Of a stretch of 64,000 bases of DNA, positions 2,289 to 22,959 are shown in pieces; the first letter of the stretch is position 1, and each line of letters opens with the position of its first letter. Where the stretch lies: IMG/VR virus record IMGVR_UViG_3300035696_002928, positions 20,565 to 84,564 of that record. One strand, written 5' to 3'. Below the pieces are notes generated by a model that saw only the letters and a program-made list of their open reading frames with translations, made no database searches and was not told where the DNA came from. The position numbers and the translations under genes were made by a program. Source of the stretch: a virus (taxonomy: Duplodnaviria; Caudoviricetes).

Positions 2289-2638
2289 ACGGGCGGCTCC
2301 GGGCTTTCCCATTCCTCCTCAAGAAAGCGACGCACCCGCCATCGCCAACAGTCCTCCCACCTGTGCCGCAGCCTCCAGCCCCGACGTTCGCATCGCCAGA
2401 CACGGTAGTAAGTCAGCGGCGCGGCCAGACAGAAGGCCGTCGCCGCCCCGATGGCAACGCGCCGGGCTAGCAACGCTTCAACGGCCGCGTTGTTGACGAT
2501 CCGCGGCCGGCGGACCAATCCGAGAAAGAGCCAGGGGCGAACGACCCGCCATCGGTAGCGGGGATAGACGTGGCCCACCCTCTCCCACGGCCCATCGGCC
2601 GTCTTGAACTCAATCTCGTAGCTGTCGATGTAGCGCAT
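2285..2638 (-). CDS. Hypothetical Arg/Trp-rich protein
   Basis: MRYIDSYEIEFK...; TAATG coupling to the polymerase stop and ATGA coupling downstream. Confidence 0.6.
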   Translation of the reverse strand: MRYIDSYEIEFKTADGPWERVGHVYPRYRWRVVRPWLFLGLVRRPRIVNNAAVEALLARRVAIGAATAFCLAAPLTYYRVWRCERRGWRLRHRWEDCWRWRVRRFLEEEWESPEPPV

Positions 2639-5397
2639 TACAGCATCTCCGGGGCTCGAATCTTGACCGGGGCCGCACCGCCCTTCTTCTCGGCCCAGTT
2701 GTCCATGCCCTCGAACCAGGTCATGCCAATGAGCGGGACGTGGCCGCGGAACGATTCCACGACCTCGCGGACGCTGGCCGTAATCTCGGTGACGATCTCG
2801 GGCATGGCCACGACCATCAATTCGTCGTGGACGTTCAACGGGGCGAGGCGGAGCGGGTGGACGCCCGCCGGCTGCAAGTCCCACAGTTGCCGCTGGACCG
2901 ATTTGGTGATTTCGGCACCAGGCGATTGAATCTCGTGGTTGGCCGCCGCCCGCATGTTGGCCGCCTGCATCTGGAAGGCGGCACCATAGAGAGCGCTGGC
3001 CACGGCCCCGCCGGCAGTCTGCACGCGGTCGCGGCGGACGACCTTGACCTTGCAGTTCCGCCAGTGTTTCGGCGGGTTGCGGGCCAGGTCGAAGAGGGCC
3101 TTGCAGATTTTGTTCTCCAGCGTGAAGTAGCGACGGAAGCCGAGGAAGGTTTCGATGTACTCGGCGGGCGTGGCCCAGACCACTGCGCTCCCGATCCCTG
3201 CGGGTTGCCGCATGGAGCAGAAGGCGTCAAAGGTCTTGGTGCGGGCCTTGCCGATGCCGGGGTAGCGCTTCACGAAGTCCGCGTAGGCCCGTTTCGCCCT
3301 TTCCTCCGTGACGCCCAACTTCTGCACCAGTGTGTTCCAATCGCCGCCGTACACCAGGGCGAACACGCCACGCTTGCCCTTGTCGTACCAGTCGTTGTCG
3401 CTGCCGCTGGACGCAATGACCTCGGCGTAGCTGAGGCCAGAGAGGGCCATGCCGAACAGGGCATGGAGCTTCTGCGGCGTCATGCCGGTTGTTTCGCACT
3501 CGCCGCACGGCGTCCCCTTCTTCTTGTCCCTGCCGGTGCCGCCGCACTTCGGGCAGGGGCCCTTCGTCACCAGGTCCTTGCGGAGGGCCGGGTCGTTGTA
3601 GACGGCATCGGCAATCGTCACCTCGAACGAATCGAAGTCGCCGCCGCAGAGGATCATGTTTTCCCAGAACAAGGGGAACATCTTGCGCACGTCCTTGGCG
3701 TGCTTGATGCCCTGCGGATTCAGGCCGTCCGCCCCGGCCATGCGGCTTGACAAGGTGCCGATCACCACGAAGCTGGCGTGGAACTTGCCGGCAAGCAGCA
3801 GCTTCTTGTAGAGTTCCACCTCCTTGGCGGCGATCTTCACGTCGAGGACTTCCTGCGCCCGGCGGGCCGCCGGATGCCTACCGGGCTGAAGGACCCCGGC
3901 ACCGCCGCAACGGGCGCAGTCATGGAACTTGGCCGCCGAACCATTGGTCAACGTCTCGTAGGCCGTCTGCACCCGCTTGAAGTCCGCCGCATTGCCGTCA
4001 TGGTCAGGATGATGCTGTTGGACCAGGCGGCGGTACGCTGCGTTAATCGCGTCAGTGTCGGCCGCTGGTTCCAATCCAAGGGCGTCGAACGATTGCAGAC
4101 AGGCGGCCCCGTCACAACGTCCACACGGCTCCGGCGTCGCGATCTCCCAGCGAGTAATGGCTTCCAAATTGCTCTTCTTCGTGGACTCTTCGAGGACAAT
4201 CCTCTCGGTGAGGTCCATCGCCGCCGTGATATACGCCCGGACCTCCGGCGGCTTGTTGATGTTCACTGGGCTGTTGGCGACCACTGCCTCGGCCTTGGCG
4301 AGCAGTTCCCCCATGCCAGCCTTGTTGATCGAGAAGCCATGCCAGCGGACGACTGGGACCATGCAAGCCAGCGTCGAGTCGTTGTCGCCCGGCGGCGGGC
4401 AGCCGAAGTGCTTGTCGAGCGCCCGCGTGTAAACGATGTCATCGTTGGCGTATTCGCGCGCATCTGCCCGGGTGGCCCAATGCTCGATGTGCTTGTCGAT
4501 GACGCCCGGCCAGGCGTGGCCCAGCAGGGCATCTTCGCCTGCCTTGGGCCTCCGCCGCTTGGGGACTACCTCTTCGCCGTCATGCTCGTCGTCCAGAGTC
4601 AGGGCGGGGTCCGTCAGTTGCTCTTCGACGGCCACCTTGGCTGTTTTGCCCTTCTTCTTGCCCCACACCTCCCAATTCCGCTCCGGCGACGAGACGGCCA
4701 GTGCCGTGGGCGCATAGCCCAATTCGTAAGGCCGCCAAGCCGCCGAGGGCTCAACGTCCTTGAAATGGAACTTGGGCTTGAAGCCCATCGCGTGCTCAGC
4801 GAGGAACTTGAGGCCGCCAGCCGGGTTGAATCGCAGCACGACATCCTTGAAGTCGGTGTCGATGTCGCCGTAGCGATCCTTGCGGTCGAAGACTTGCCAC
4901 TTTGGGGCATTCGGATCGGCCGACTTGGCGAAGTAGATGTTGTCCAATTGGACACGGCCCTCTAGCTCAGAAGCGAGGGCATAGGCCAGCGCCGAGGGCA
5001 CCCGCTTGATGCGGATGTCCTCGCGGGCCATGAGGGACTGGTACGGTCCCTTGCGGGAATGAAGCATCAGGTCCAACGCCGCAGCCGGCTTGACGCACGG
5101 CCCATCCTGCCCCTGGGGCTCCAAGAGAGCGATCTCGTTGACGTGCTCCCGTGGAATCCAATCCGGGTCCGCAAGGCGGAAGATGGTGTAGGTCTTGACG
5201 ATGTGGAACCAGTCAAAGGAGAGGTTGAAGCCCACGACCGTGTGCTCGGTCAGCCATTCGATCAGGCGCAGCGTTTCGCGGATCGGCCGCCGCCAGACCT
5301 CGTGGAGCTGGATCGGGCCATCTTCCTCGGCGTACTGCAACAGCACCATCATGCTGTGCAAGCCGCAGGTCTCGCTGTCGATATAGACCTTGCTCAT
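2638..5397 (-). CDS. polA: Family A DNA polymerase with 3'-5' exonuclease, carrying inserted J-domain and zinc fingers
   Basis: ExoI YIDSETCG, ExoII GFNLSFD, ExoIII YANDD; GTLSSRM; motif A GDFDSFE; motif B KRGVFALVYGG; NHEIQSPGA; motif C NVHDEL. Confidence 0.92.
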   Translation of the reverse strand: MSKVYIDSETCGLHSMMVLLQYAEEDGPIQLHEVWRRPIRETLRLIEWLTEHTVVGFNLSFDWFHIVKTYTIFRLADPDWIPREHVNEIALLEPQGQDGPCVKPAAALDLMLHSRKGPYQSLMAREDIRIKRVPSALAYALASELEGRVQLDNIYFAKSADPNAPKWQVFDRKDRYGDIDTDFKDVVLRFNPAGGLKFLAEHAMGFKPKFHFKDVEPSAAWRPYELGYAPTALAVSSPERNWEVWGKKKGKTAKVAVEEQLTDPALTLDDEHDGEEVVPKRRRPKAGEDALLGHAWPGVIDKHIEHWATRADAREYANDDIVYTRALDKHFGCPPPGDNDSTLACMVPVVRWHGFSINKAGMGELLAKAEAVVANSPVNINKPPEVRAYITAAMDLTERIVLEESTKKSNLEAITRWEIATPEPCGRCDGAACLQSFDALGLEPAADTDAINAAYRRLVQQHHPDHDGNAADFKRVQTAYETLTNGSAAKFHDCARCGGAGVLQPGRHPAARRAQEVLDVKIAAKEVELYKKLLLAGKFHASFVVIGTLSSRMAGADGLNPQGIKHAKDVRKMFPLFWENMILCGGDFDSFEVTIADAVYNDPALRKDLVTKGPCPKCGGTGRDKKKGTPCGECETTGMTPQKLHALFGMALSGLSYAEVIASSGSDNDWYDKGKRGVFALVYGGDWNTLVQKLGVTEERAKRAYADFVKRYPGIGKARTKTFDAFCSMRQPAGIGSAVVWATPAEYIETFLGFRRYFTLENKICKALFDLARNPPKHWRNCKVKVVRRDRVQTAGGAVASALYGAAFQMQAANMRAAANHEIQSPGAEITKSVQRQLWDLQPAGVHPLRLAPLNVHDELMVVAMPEIVTEITASVREVVESFRGHVPLIGMTWFEGMDNWAEKKGGAAPVKIRAPEML

Positions 5398-8052: not shown

Positions 8053-8727
8053 TTAGCGTGGCCTGATTTCATCCAGCGAGCGGAAGCCGGGTGCCCCGAA
8101 CACGCCGTCCATGAATCCTTTGTCCACGGCCTCCGCCGCAGGCATGTACCACTCGCGGACCTCGTTCATGCGTTGTCGCAGGTACTCGCGCACACGGTCC
8201 TTGGAGTATTTGTTGCGCCGGAAGAATGAGCCGCGGTAGCACTTGGCTGTGTAGATGGCGAGCATCTGGCCGTCCAGGCGATCATTCTGCTTGGCCTCCG
8301 CCAGAAAGCTGCGAGCATCGCCCTCATAGGCGGCCGTGCCGAAGTGGACCATGAAGTCCGCGTTGGGCATGATGACCCGCTTCTTGGCTGCCTGCGGAAT
8401 GATGCTCGACATGCTTCGCGCGTGGGCGTAGGCAAGCAGTGTGACGGGCGATTGACTGGCCGCGATGGCATCGTAGATGGCGATGCCGTAATTCCAGTCA
8501 CCGCCACAGGTGCATTGATGCACGAGGATGGACTGATGATTCAGCGAATTCAGAAAGAGAAGGTTCTTGATGAACGTGTTGGCGCAGGCGAAATCAATGC
8601 CGTCCTCCTCGTTCGCGGCCGGACTCATTAGTACGATCTCGCGCGTATCGGGATTGATCCCGAACTCGTGCAGGTCATAGACCAGTTCCGACCGTTGCGA
8701 AATGCTGCGGCGAGGCTTACGTTTCAT
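8053..8727 (-). CDS. clpP: ClpP-like serine protease
   Basis: CGGDWNYGIAIYDAI, ARSMSS (nucleophile Ser), RVIMPNADFMVH, WYMPAAEAVDKGFMD. Confidence 0.8.
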   Translation of the reverse strand: MKRKPRRSISQRSELVYDLHEFGINPDTREIVLMSPAANEEDGIDFACANTFIKNLLFLNSLNHQSILVHQCTCGGDWNYGIAIYDAIAASQSPVTLLAYAHARSMSSIIPQAAKKRVIMPNADFMVHFGTAAYEGDARSFLAEAKQNDRLDGQMLAIYTAKCYRGSFFRRNKYSKDRVREYLRQRMNEVREWYMPAAEAVDKGFMDGVFGAPGFRSLDEIRPR

Positions 8728-8878
8728 CGGCTTTCTCCACAGTGAGAAAATGCACGTCCGCGGGATGGCTGTCGAAATCCAGCCACTCGCAGATTTGCCG
8801 CCGGAGAACGTCGCCGACCGTGTACAGGTCAGTGTCCGCCGGCATGTTGTCAAGTTGCAGGACAACTCTCACGTTCAT
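8717..8878 (-). CDS. Small hypothetical protein (53 aa)
   Basis: ATG immediately after the tRNA 3' end; overlaps the ClpP start. Confidence 0.45.
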   Translation of the reverse strand: MNVRVVLQLDNMPADTDLYTVGDVLRRQICEWLDFDSHPADVHFLTVEKADET

Positions 8879-12452: not shown

Positions 12453-13388
12453 TTACTGCGTGCGAACGAACTGCTCGATCCAGCTACGCGCGGCCTCGAA
12501 GTTGAAGCCGCCCAGACAGGGCTCGGACAAGTCGGGGCTGCCGCGCCCGGAGCCGACTACCGCGGCGTCTTCCACCGGAATGGCCTCGATGTCTTTCAGG
12601 GTGGGCATCTTGACGGTCGGGTCGATAGCCCATTCGATCTTGGCTTCCTTGGCAAAGGCATGGATGCGCCGCACGGGAACGATGAAGTTGAAGCCCTGGA
12701 GCCGCTGCACGCCCTGGGTCAGCATCCCGACGTAGACGCCATCCGCCTTGATGTACACGCCGCCGCCCGAGCTACCGGGGAAAGCCACGGCCGTCACCTG
12801 GTCGAAGACCTTGACGTTCGCGCCCTTCATCGGCAACGTCCGCCCCACCTGGCTGAGCACGCCGGTCGTGTAGCTGTTCGCCCCGAATTGGCCGAGGAGA
12901 CTGCCGCAATGCGCCAGTTCGACGCCGATGGCCGGGATGTAGTCCTTCTCCAGGTGGAACTTCGTATTCAGCGTGATCGGGTAGGCATTCTTGCAGCGGA
13001 CCATGAGCAGGGCCAGGTCTTCGCCATAATCGGCGTCCGACACCTTGATGACCTTGGCGTCGAACTTCACTTCGCCGACCCGCCGGCCGCCTTCCTGCCG
13101 CTCCTGGACGATCTCGGCGTCCTTGTATTCGATCAGGGTCCGCGTGGTGCCGTTGGCCGTGACGACCGTGCGTGACGTGCGCAGATTGTCAACGACGTGG
13201 GCCGCCGTCCAGACGAAACTCACGGTGTCCTCGCCGATCTTTCGAGTGACGAGGTTGCCGGAACCCTGGGCCTCCCCGGACTTGATGGTCACGCTGATCT
13301 GCTGCAAATCGTCGGGCACGCCCGCCAGGGCCGTGCCGCCCAACAGGGCGAGGGACAAGGCGAAAACCAGAAACAGGCTACTCTTCAT
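12453..13388 (-). CDS. Secreted trypsin-like (S1) serine protease
   Basis: Signal peptide; TAAHV, EDLALL, PGSSGGG catalytic triad motifs. Confidence 0.85.
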   Translation of the reverse strand: MKSSLFLVFALSLALLGGTALAGVPDDLQQISVTIKSGEAQGSGNLVTRKIGEDTVSFVWTAAHVVDNLRTSRTVVTANGTTRTLIEYKDAEIVQERQEGGRRVGEVKFDAKVIKVSDADYGEDLALLMVRCKNAYPITLNTKFHLEKDYIPAIGVELAHCGSLLGQFGANSYTTGVLSQVGRTLPMKGANVKVFDQVTAVAFPGSSGGGVYIKADGVYVGMLTQGVQRLQGFNFIVPVRRIHAFAKEAKIEWAIDPTVKMPTLKDIEAIPVEDAAVVGSGRGSPDLSEPCLGGFNFEAARSWIEQFVRTQ

Positions 13389-22338: not shown

Positions 22339-22517
22339 TCCACGTCTACCGCACGGCTGGCTACGTGACCCGTTCCATTGTGCTCGTCGAACCTGTCGCC
22401 GAGGTTGAAATGGATGCCTTCCCGGATGATCCGCAGGACTTCGCTGACAGGCGTGACGGCGATTACCTCGAAGTTGCACCCGGAGAAGAAGACCGTGAGC
22501 AAGTACAGCATGTGTGA
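22332..22517 (+). CDS. Small acidic hypothetical protein
   Basis: ATG overlapping the primase end. Confidence 0.45.
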   Translation: MLIHVYRTAGYVTRSIVLVEPVAEVEMDAFPDDPQDFADRRDGDYLEVAPGEEDREQVQHV

Positions 22518-22959
22518 CAACGGCAAGCGACAATCCTTCGGCAAGGGCCGGGCGATCCGCGACACCGCGGACGACAAGCCGCGGCCCGACCTGATCTCCC
22601 CCTTCGCCGAAGAGCGGCAGGGCCACTGGCTCCGCATGGGAGCCGCGAAATATGCCGAGCGCAATTGGGAGAACGGGATGCCATTCAGCCGGTGCGTGGC
22701 CTCCCTGAAACGGCACCTGATGAAGTTCCAGCAGGGGTTGAAGGACGAGGACCACCTGGCGGCCATCATGTTCAACGCGATGGCCCTGATCCACTACGAA
22801 GAGATGATCGAGCGCGGCGTGTTGCCTGCCAGCCTGAACGACATGCCAAGCTACCGGGCGGTCATCAAAAGCGCCTTGAGGGCCATCAAGCGGAAGGCCA
22901 AGAAGCCGGCCAAGCGCAAGCTGGCGAAGAAGGCCGCAAGGAAGACCTGCAAATCCTGA
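22495..22959 (+). CDS. dATP/dGTP diphosphohydrolase-like protein (DUF5664 type)
   Basis: KPRPDLIS, GAAKYAERNWENG, SLKRHL, EDHLAAIMFNAM; Lys-rich tail. Confidence 0.78.
   Translation: MSKYSMCDNGKRQSFGKGRAIRDTADDKPRPDLISPFAEERQGHWLRMGAAKYAERNWENGMPFSRCVASLKRHLMKFQQGLKDEDHLAAIMFNAMALIHYEEMIERGVLPASLNDMPSYRAVIKSALRAIKRKAKKPAKRKLAKKAARKTCKS

Follow-up and report, generated by a model that had tools for sequence, protein, structure and literature searches.

What is a J-domain doing inside the thumb of a phage DNA polymerase? The locus lies in a 64,000-nt stretch of viral DNA (the window), in which the initial annotation had noticed a J-domain with an intact HPD tripeptide within a family-A DNA polymerase (PolA) and proposed that the enzyme may recruit host DnaK. 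Precedents are known, in that replicases borrow host proteins, as T7 does thioredoxin, and viral initiators such as T antigen carry J-domains. The literature that we searched contained no earlier description of a J-domain joined to a PolA thumb. A J-domain in this position would tie a DNA polymerase straight into the Hsp70 cycle.

The ORF at nt 2638-5397 (minus strand, as are all features given below) encodes 919 residues and is a family-A polymerase with its 3'-5' exonuclease and polymerase motifs intact. Its PF00476 (DNA_pol_A) score of 53.3 bits exceeds the 34.3-bit cut-off. Among 103 homologues, conservation is complete or at least 90% at the ExoI-III residues (D7, E9, N58, D62, Y316 and D320), and those of motif A (D587), motif B (K675, Y683 and G684) and motif C (H857, D858 and E859) are invariant or nearly so. 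The AF2 model (pLDDT 85.9) matched phage G20c Pol I at a VIA Z score of 21.7 and the Bst large fragment at around 20, and the values of 18-21.7 across G20c, Bst, Taq, Klenow and Pol nu are those of a Klenow-like fold; the model aligned from residue 1 with exonuclease-bearing structures. The invariant motifs, the Pfam score and the fold bear out the annotation of the ORF as a PolA enzyme, with one slip to correct. The peptide GTLSSRM (aa 547-553, nt 3739-3759), which had been taken for motif A, is the TGRLSS-like motif and aligns by HMMER with GTVSGRMSS of 7r0k, while motif A is GGDFDSFEV (aa 585-593, nt 3619-3645), aligned with DYASMEL of 7r0k and containing the invariant D587. Between motifs A and B lies a second Cys4 finger, CPKCGGTG...CGECETTG (aa 615-638, nt 3484-3555), whose CxxC...CxxC pattern is found in the family consensus and which PF00684 (DnaJ central zinc-finger) matches weakly (16.3 bits, with the cut-off at 32.7).

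The ORF is best explained as encoding the replicative polymerase of a temperate phage that infects Planctomycetota in peat, an enzyme of a PolA subfamily with a putative zinc knuckle in the thumb. This subfamily, now defined in Planctomycetota phages, goes unmentioned in two recent surveys, one of PolA enzymes and one of bacterial polymerases. The PolA reclassification survey makes no mention of zinc, cysteine, DnaJ or chaperones (PMC10201439). A separate idea, that of a Z-genome, was dropped: a MazZ-like domain is present and PurZ is absent.

Within this enzyme the block at approximately aa 431-493 (nt 3919-4107) is a genuine and complete J-domain with its HPD. The peptide quoted in the initial annotation is present exactly, with CGRC starting at aa 425 and CARCGGAG at aa 494, and its interval of nt 3895-4130 spans aa 423-501 of the ORF. 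PF00226 (DnaJ) matched the core of the domain (aa 437-487, nt 3937-4089) with 43.7 bits (E-value 2.9e-11; cut-off 27.8 bits), rising to 48.6 bits in a six-frame search, and phmmer found DNAJA1/2 at around 5e-8 and E. coli DnaJ at 1e-5. In DNA alignment with J-less relatives (L003/L004; 84.6% nucleotide identity for one of them) the block appears as a clean in-frame gap of 186 nt, or 62 additional codons, between the two CxxC halves, and the reading frame is unbroken as claimed. The third-position GC content of the insert is 0.71 compared with 0.84 for the whole gene.

Modelling gave the four-helix J fold (helices at aa 430-440, 448-462, 470-484 and 487-492), with HPD (aa 463-465, nt 4003-4011) in the loop between the second and third helices and a mean pLDDT of 80-96 for the J-domain blocks of a sub-model covering aa 340-560. 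The best structural matches were almost all J-domains, including the top 36 among the Foldseek matches listed (TM normalised to the target, 0.6-0.73); 5nro_B superposed with an rmsd of 2.3 over 59 residues. VIA Z scores of the sub-model were 9.7 to Tim14 and 7-7.6 to P58IPK, ERdj5 and Ydj1. Helix II carries fewer basic residues than that of E. coli DnaJ, and the position of R22 is occupied by N, H or G.

The J-domain lies within the loop of a putative Cys4 zinc knuckle, whose first half is CGRC (aa 425-428, nt 4114-4125) and whose second is CARC (aa 494-497, nt 3907-3918), the latter of CxxCxGxG type. All four cysteines (C425, C428, C494 and C497) are invariant in the 103 homologues, in agreement with the description of a domain clasped by two CxxC half-sites. 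PF00684 scored 16.3 bits for our protein, 27.2 for P0040 and 25.2 for P0042, all below the 32.7 cut-off, though CxxCxGxG motifs are present. Structural alignment of the sub-model with T7 gp5 (residues 217-439) and Klenow (residues 530-677), and with the thumbs of M. smegmatis Pol1, Pol nu and DpoZ, confirmed the predicted position of the insert in the PolA thumb. The helices run from short tip helices through the knuckle and J-domain to a long helix (aa 509-536, nt 3790-3873, by DSSP of the models) that leads back toward the palm, and from this order the J-domain would sit at the thumb tip. The same knuckle loop holds unrelated inserts of 20-70 residues in three other polymerases (P0148, L156 and L159); hence it is a permissive site.

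The insert is rare and patchy. It was found in 5 of about 79 viral relatives and in none of 22 copies of the polymerase in Planctomycetota genomes, and J-less relatives are as close as 92-93% identity. An AU test rejected a single clade of J-bearing enzymes (p 7e-94), and their distribution corresponds to at least four gains or losses. All five nevertheless keep HPD and the AYRxL and FKxxxxA(Y/F)E signatures despite divergence of their J-domains to 44-67% mutual identity, and the other four copies scored 37.2-49.5 bits with PF00226, all above the cut-off. For the J-domain dN was 0.27-0.46 and dS at least about 0.9, giving dN/dS below 1, with dS noisy and saturated over some 55 codons. As judged from these comparisons of sequence, the J-domain is under purifying selection in the polymerases. 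Homologues with and without the insert were thus both recovered, and HPD is conserved throughout the former.

The nearest J-domains outside polymerases belong to small stand-alone proteins with a C-terminal J-domain on metagenome and viral contigs (54-68% identity). The polymerase J-domains are one another's best matches, but the stand-alone ones score almost equally, so the cassette may have had one origin or several. A separate J protein of the ‘Rosetta-stone’ kind was absent from the J-less relatives in five incomplete records and one complete record. Further searches added no J-bearing polymerase: tblastn with the polymerase found nothing in 50,697 GenBank phage records, word-indexed protein searches with the J region returned only J-less polymerases or only P0034 itself, and scans of IMG/VR and JGI metagenomes with the J-domain found stand-alone J proteins, none adjoining a polymerase. 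An exhaustive HMMER search with aa 405-560 against 1.84 billion representatives had no other protein combining J-domain and polymerase among its best 150 matches, and found other inserts at the knuckle loop. Given that relatives of 92-93% identity have neither the module nor, in the parts recovered, a stand-alone J protein, phages of this group can replicate without it and any benefit would be conditional.

The provirus holds no Hsp70 gene, so any chaperone partner would have to come from the host. Docking of the thumb fragment, rather than the whole enzyme on DNA, onto a Pirellulales (Rhodopirellula) DnaK gave a score of 0.70 against 0.01 for the best control; 58 of 80 solved complexes attain that mark, as do 2 of 110 mismatched pairs. 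Three runs shared at least 98% of contacts, with a partner pLDDT of 80. The predicted interface places helix II, HPD (sub-model residues 124-126) and helix III against DnaK residues 208-221, 385-396, 421-425 and 483-484, which we take to be approximately the nucleotide-binding domain, interdomain linker and beta substrate-binding domain, as in 5NRO. This pass may only reflect the model's memory of, or likeness to, solved J-DnaK complexes. DnaK binding is predicted in silico, and the client and the benefit are inferred.

We propose that the insert is an optional module acting in cis to bring host DnaK to the replicase, and give this reading a probability of around 0.6. With HPD and the surface of helices II and III preserved, the J-domain stands out from the thumb, and it would bind host DnaK in its ATP state and trigger ATP hydrolysis, upon which DnaK would clamp a nearby client, either the polymerase itself or a replisome partner. 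It would then help the phage replicase to fold, assemble or be remodelled, rather than serve as an obligatory processivity subunit.

A bolder version, which we consider doubtful, makes the thumb a docking platform from which ATP-controlled loading in cis would place DnaK on the replisome as a regulated remodeller or transient clamp, with the cassette an intragenic accessory module spread by recombination and the DnaJ-like knuckle as its ancestral landing pad. The clamp targets proposed in that version are the polymerase-DNA or polymerase-helicase complex, and the cassette is pictured as spreading among co-infecting phages, tuned to the host DnaK.

DnaK might instead stay on the thumb as a clamp-like or processivity cofactor, the chaperone analogue of thioredoxin on T7 gp5. 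The insert does occupy the subdomain in which T7 has its thioredoxin-binding domain, and recurrent thumb-tip inserts in phage PolAs have been proposed to contact the nascent duplex (PMC10201439). Near-identical polymerases, however, work without the module, and a clamp or thioredoxin-like fold is absent; nor did the insert show homology to the thioredoxin-binding domain or a thioredoxin-binding loop, being a J-domain by both sequence and fold. Furthermore, J-domains bind Hsp70-ATP transiently and dissociate after hydrolysis, in contrast to the tight 1:1 complex of T7 gp5 and thioredoxin. We therefore regard this role as improbable. Of the original proposal, recruitment of host DnaK is retained as a docking prediction, whereas a T7-thioredoxin-like processivity function is unsupported in view of the transient contacts and the 92-93% identical relatives that lack the module.

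The J-domain might also be a passenger in a permissive surface loop, neutral or being lost and with no part in replication, as could be read from its patchy distribution, the other inserts of 20-70 residues accepted by the loop and its lower third-position GC content. Such a passenger would hardly be expected to keep HPD and the J signature in five of five copies across their divergence, to stay above the Pfam cut-off in every one and free of frameshifts and stops, or to give dN/dS below 1 (with the noise in dS already noted), and we think this reading unlikely too.

Somewhat less probable still is host takeover, with the polymerase a mere carrier. As part of an early and abundant protein, the J-domain would titrate DnaK or redirect it, for instance so as to change the heat-shock response in the manner of Rki of RB43. 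Rki, a phage J protein, acts on DnaK and sigma32 (PMC3486835), and the nearest non-polymerase relatives of the insert are the small stand-alone J proteins described above. Takeover fails to account for the identical thumb-loop site in every copy, as opposed to a separate gene, and the recovered parts of J-less relatives lack a stand-alone J gene.

An assembly chimera or sequencing artefact is already close to refuted and has almost no probability left: the window is a metagenome assembly and the C-side junction is bridged by a single contig, from the probable source run, but the insert is in frame, its N-side junction is bridged in other runs, and a J-domain stands at the same site in four other viral contigs from other samples. 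A 630-nt contig of the probable source run spans the whole insert without a mismatch. On the N-side, two other peat runs have contigs that cross the junction by 37-41 nt; the contig of a third run reaches only 18 nt into the insert. The C-side is not bridged by the contigs of other runs, which thus give no evidence either way, so the junction check stands on the N-side for the source run and two others and on the C-side for the source-run contig.

The natural alleles with and without the J-domain, 92-93% identical outside the insert, form a clean system for the role of Hsp70 at a replicase, and open questions of folding, assembly, stress tolerance and processivity. If the docking-platform version were true, it would add a new class to the ways in which replicases are coupled to host factors.

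Among known systems, the thioredoxin-binding domain of T7 gp5 is likewise an insert in a phage PolA thumb, and ours is predicted to recruit a host protein as well. It differs in that its loop fold is unrelated to a J-domain within a knuckle, its partner is thioredoxin rather than the predicted DnaK, with which contact would be transient and ATP-driven, and the J module is optional among close relatives. The thumb-tip inserts of phiKMV-like and POP phages are also lineage-specific PolA inserts thought to contact DNA or partners, but are beta-rich extensions (PMC10201439). Polyomavirus large T antigen similarly fuses an HPD-bearing J-domain to a viral replication protein, and our J-domain matched its structures 1faf and 1gh6 in the structural and sequence comparisons; there, however, the J-domain is N-terminal on an SF3 helicase and initiator of a eukaryotic virus, whereas here it lies inside a phage polymerase subdomain. 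Phage-encoded J-domains aimed at host DnaK, as predicted here, include Rki of phage RB43, which binds DnaK (PMC3486835), and the DnaJ-domain co-chaperones of jumbo phages (PMC7824862). Stand-alone phage J proteins, among which we found matches to five PHROGs, are separate small proteins, unlike our internal replicase insert. Type I DnaJ also has a J-domain and CxxCxGxG-type motifs in one polypeptide, in line with the weak PF00684 matches, but in the polymerase the J-domain sits inside the finger, and the G/F region and C-terminal client-binding domains are absent. In the release of lambda P from DnaB by DnaK, DnaJ and GrpE, the Hsp70 system remodels replication proteins with the J protein supplied in trans, and the activity of yeast Pol gamma, itself a family-A enzyme, depends on Mdj1, again a J protein acting in trans.

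The 919-aa open reading frame of the family-A DNA polymerase lies on the minus strand (2638-5397). Although translation of the plus strand at the coordinates of the initial annotation gives nonsense, the peptide quoted there is exact, with CGRC at residue 425, HPD at residues 463-465 and CARCGGAG at residue 494. The polymerase and J-domain named there both exceed their Pfam cut-offs, DNA_pol_A at 53.3 bits (cut-off 34.3) and DnaJ at 43.7 bits (cut-off 27.8; residues 437-487, E 2.9e-11), and PHROGs matches are to DNA polymerase and to five phage J-containing protein families without functional annotation. The full-length AlphaFold2 model (built on 103 homologues; pLDDT 85.9, pTM 0.83) matches Klenow-type polymerases over residues 1-906, with Z scores of 21.7 for phage G20c Pol I and approximately 20 for the Bst large fragment. 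More than 900 homologues were found, most of 800-860 aa, and family-wide the exonuclease residues and motifs A, B and C show little or no variation. One homologue locus, L166:1501-5022 (IMGVR_UViG_3300007764_000001), has a polymerase match of 3522 nt, about 250 codons above the usual length, with a reading frame that is broken in simple extraction; an intein, a frameshift or a large insert may account for the additional length.

The J-domain insert (3919-4107, minus strand) accounts for 62 extra residues between two CxxC pairs, where almost all aligned homologues have a short loop. The four cysteines of this putative zinc knuckle are invariant in 103 sequences, and a J-less relative 84.6% identical at the DNA level differs by a clean in-frame block of 186 nt. 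Unrelated inserts of about 20-70 aa occupy the same loop in the relatives P0142, P0148, L156:1501-4092 and L159:1501-4065, hence the knuckle loop is a permissive site. In one clade (L094-L118 and others) an extra upstream CxxC pair brings the CxxCxG repeats to four, which resembles the DnaJ zinc-finger domain. Another CxxCxGxG-type Cys4 finger (CPKCGGTG...CGECETTG; residues 615-638, 3484-3555, minus strand) separates motif A from motif B, presumably within the polymerase fingers, and gives a weak, sub-threshold Pfam match to DnaJ_CXXCXGXG (residues 615-650). Its CxxC...CxxC pattern is retained in the family consensus, and the finger is larger in some relatives (P0021 and P0024-P0026).

A separate model of the thumb fragment (residues 340-560; 72 sequences including all the J-bearing ones, pLDDT 88.2) has mean pLDDT values of 80-96 in blocks over the J-domain. 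Its top Foldseek matches are almost all J-domains, among them that of DnaK-bound DnaJ (5nro_B, rmsd 2.3 over 59 aa) and that of polyomavirus T antigen, and an independent search against all representative structures matched Tim14 to model residues 90-153 with a Z score of 9.7. In the latter search the rest of the fragment aligned to the thumb regions of T7 gp5 (residues 217-439, Z 6.2) and Klenow (residues 530-677, Z 5.8), and also to the thumbs of M. smegmatis Pol1, Pol nu and DpoZ. The models thus confirm the J fold and thumb location first read from the sequence. The elements run from short tip helices through the knuckle and J-domain to a long helix (residues 509-536) and a TGRLSS-like motif, an order from which we infer that the J-module lies at the distal tip of the thumb.

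The fusion had been described as in frame and unbroken. The probable source run has a mismatch-free contig of 630 nt that covers the entire insert, and in two other peat runs (X3 and X4) contigs cover the J-domain and bridge the N-side junction by 37-41 nt; in a third (X2) the contig extends only 18 nt into the insert. More tellingly, the J-domain is found at the same loop in four more IMG/VR contigs from other samples, so the insert is very probably real. Short contigs from runs X1-X3 match the last part of the J-domain (around 3927-3975) at no less than 88%, but from 3927 onwards they continue as an unlike Cys-rich sequence reading ...CPDDCGIC...; they may represent a further J-bearing variant or a relative of the donor. 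One X1 contig runs directly from 3848 to 4157, with 308 nt missing, as would be expected if the sample also contained a J-less relative whose knuckle has diverged. Polymerases with and without the J-domain likewise occur together in sample 3300031788 (L089 and L004, respectively).

Across 78 IMG/VR loci and the query, five polymerases carry the J-domain (the query, L089, L115, L094 and L095, the last being P0034). None of 22 species-genome loci does, and the best 150 of 1.84 billion representatives include no protein combining J-domain and polymerase. All five pass the Pfam cut-off and keep HPD, which agrees with the expected conservation of this motif. On a tree computed without the insert the J-bearing enzymes are scattered, the nearest relative of each being J-less at 92-93% identity. 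Five changes are required, at least four of them forced by well-supported branches, and a single J-bearing clade is rejected (AU test, delta lnL 787, p 7e-94). The J-domains share 44-67% amino acid identity (dN 0.27-0.46, dS from about 0.9 to saturated) and their distances do not track those of the far less diverged carriers (dN 0.06-0.23, dS 0.7-1.0). Despite this divergence the signature positions GL, YRxL, HPD, FK and A-Y/F-E are fixed. The polymerase J-domains are mutual best matches, and only slightly more distant are small stand-alone proteins whose C-terminus carries a J-domain, such as L009 (54-68% identity). In our reading the cassette was repeatedly moved between polymerase alleles, or lost, while J function stayed under selection. 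The cassette probably travelled by recombination through its conserved flanks, and stand-alone J proteins of the L009 kind are a plausible source; as judged from the sequences, this history is compatible with a single or a multiple origin.

The window comes from an IMG/VR provirus record of 84.6 kb, DNA of which was detected in peat metagenomes. The polymerase is surrounded by a phage replication module comprising an exonuclease, a SNF2-like helicase, a D5/DUF5906 primase-helicase, ParB, methylases and a metallophosphatase. Within this module, and not beside capsid genes, lie a ClpP-family protease (8053-8865, minus strand, 69 bits) and a trypsin-like peptidase (12453-13388, minus strand). A protein with a MazZ-like dATP/dGTP diphosphohydrolase N-terminal domain (PF18909, 68 bits) is encoded at 22378-22959 on the plus strand; a 2-aminoadenine genome is nevertheless not indicated, because the 84.6-kb record has no gene for a PurZ-like adenylosuccinate synthetase. 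Relatives of the polymerase are carried by prophages in MAGs of Thermoguttaceae, Pirellulales and Planctomycetia, with a few more distant copies in MAGs labelled as other phyla. One Thermoguttaceae MAG chromosome (OY762224.2, 4.2 Mb) has three separate copies (L173, L185 and L191), which suggests three related prophages in a single host.

No Hsp70 was found in the provirus, nor any J-domain besides that of the polymerase, so any partner would have to be host DnaK. Complexes were predicted for the thumb fragment with ATP and the DnaK of Rhodopirellula baltica; the best of three controls scored 0.01, whereas the fragment with DnaK scored 0.70 in three runs. Of 80 solved complexes, 58 attained that mark, as did 2 of 110 mismatched pairs. 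The runs shared at least 98% of their contacts, with a partner pLDDT of 80. The predicted interface involves polymerase residues 452-461 (helix II), 463-466 (HPD and the next residue) and 470-481 (helix III), and DnaK residues 208-221, 385-396, 421-425 and 483-484, which we take to be the nucleotide-binding domain, interdomain linker and beta substrate-binding domain contacted in 5NRO. Since J-DnaK complexes have already been solved, this modelled docking shows likeness and accessibility of the J-domain in the fragment, not binding. By analogy with established J-domain biology, the J-domain would likely deliver DnaK-ATP and trigger hydrolysis beside a client. The initial annotation had proposed DnaK as a folding, loading or processivity cofactor resembling thioredoxin in T7. 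The docking model is consistent with a DnaK cofactor; the transient nature of J-Hsp70 contacts speaks against a processivity subunit that is obligatory in the way thioredoxin is for T7, and so do near-identical J-less enzymes, the recovered parts of whose records contain no stand-alone J protein. For these reasons we favour a role in cis-chaperoning or replisome remodelling.

Full-text literature searches found no fusion of a J-domain or DnaJ with a DNA polymerase in a phage or virus, in line with the earlier impression that it was undescribed. T antigen is a known neighbour of the J-bearing polymerase. A 2026 survey of bacterial polymerases does not mention a J-domain fusion. The 2023 PolA reclassification gives the T7 TBD, phiKMV-like inserts and POPs as thumb-tip inserts, and mentions neither DnaJ, zinc, cysteine nor chaperone (PMC10201439). 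Rki of RB43 was the first phage J protein (PMC3486835), and jumbo phages encode stand-alone DnaJ co-chaperones (PMC7824862). Hence the parts are known, as is the logic by which a replication protein of a virus recruits a factor from its host; what appears to be new is their combination and placement.
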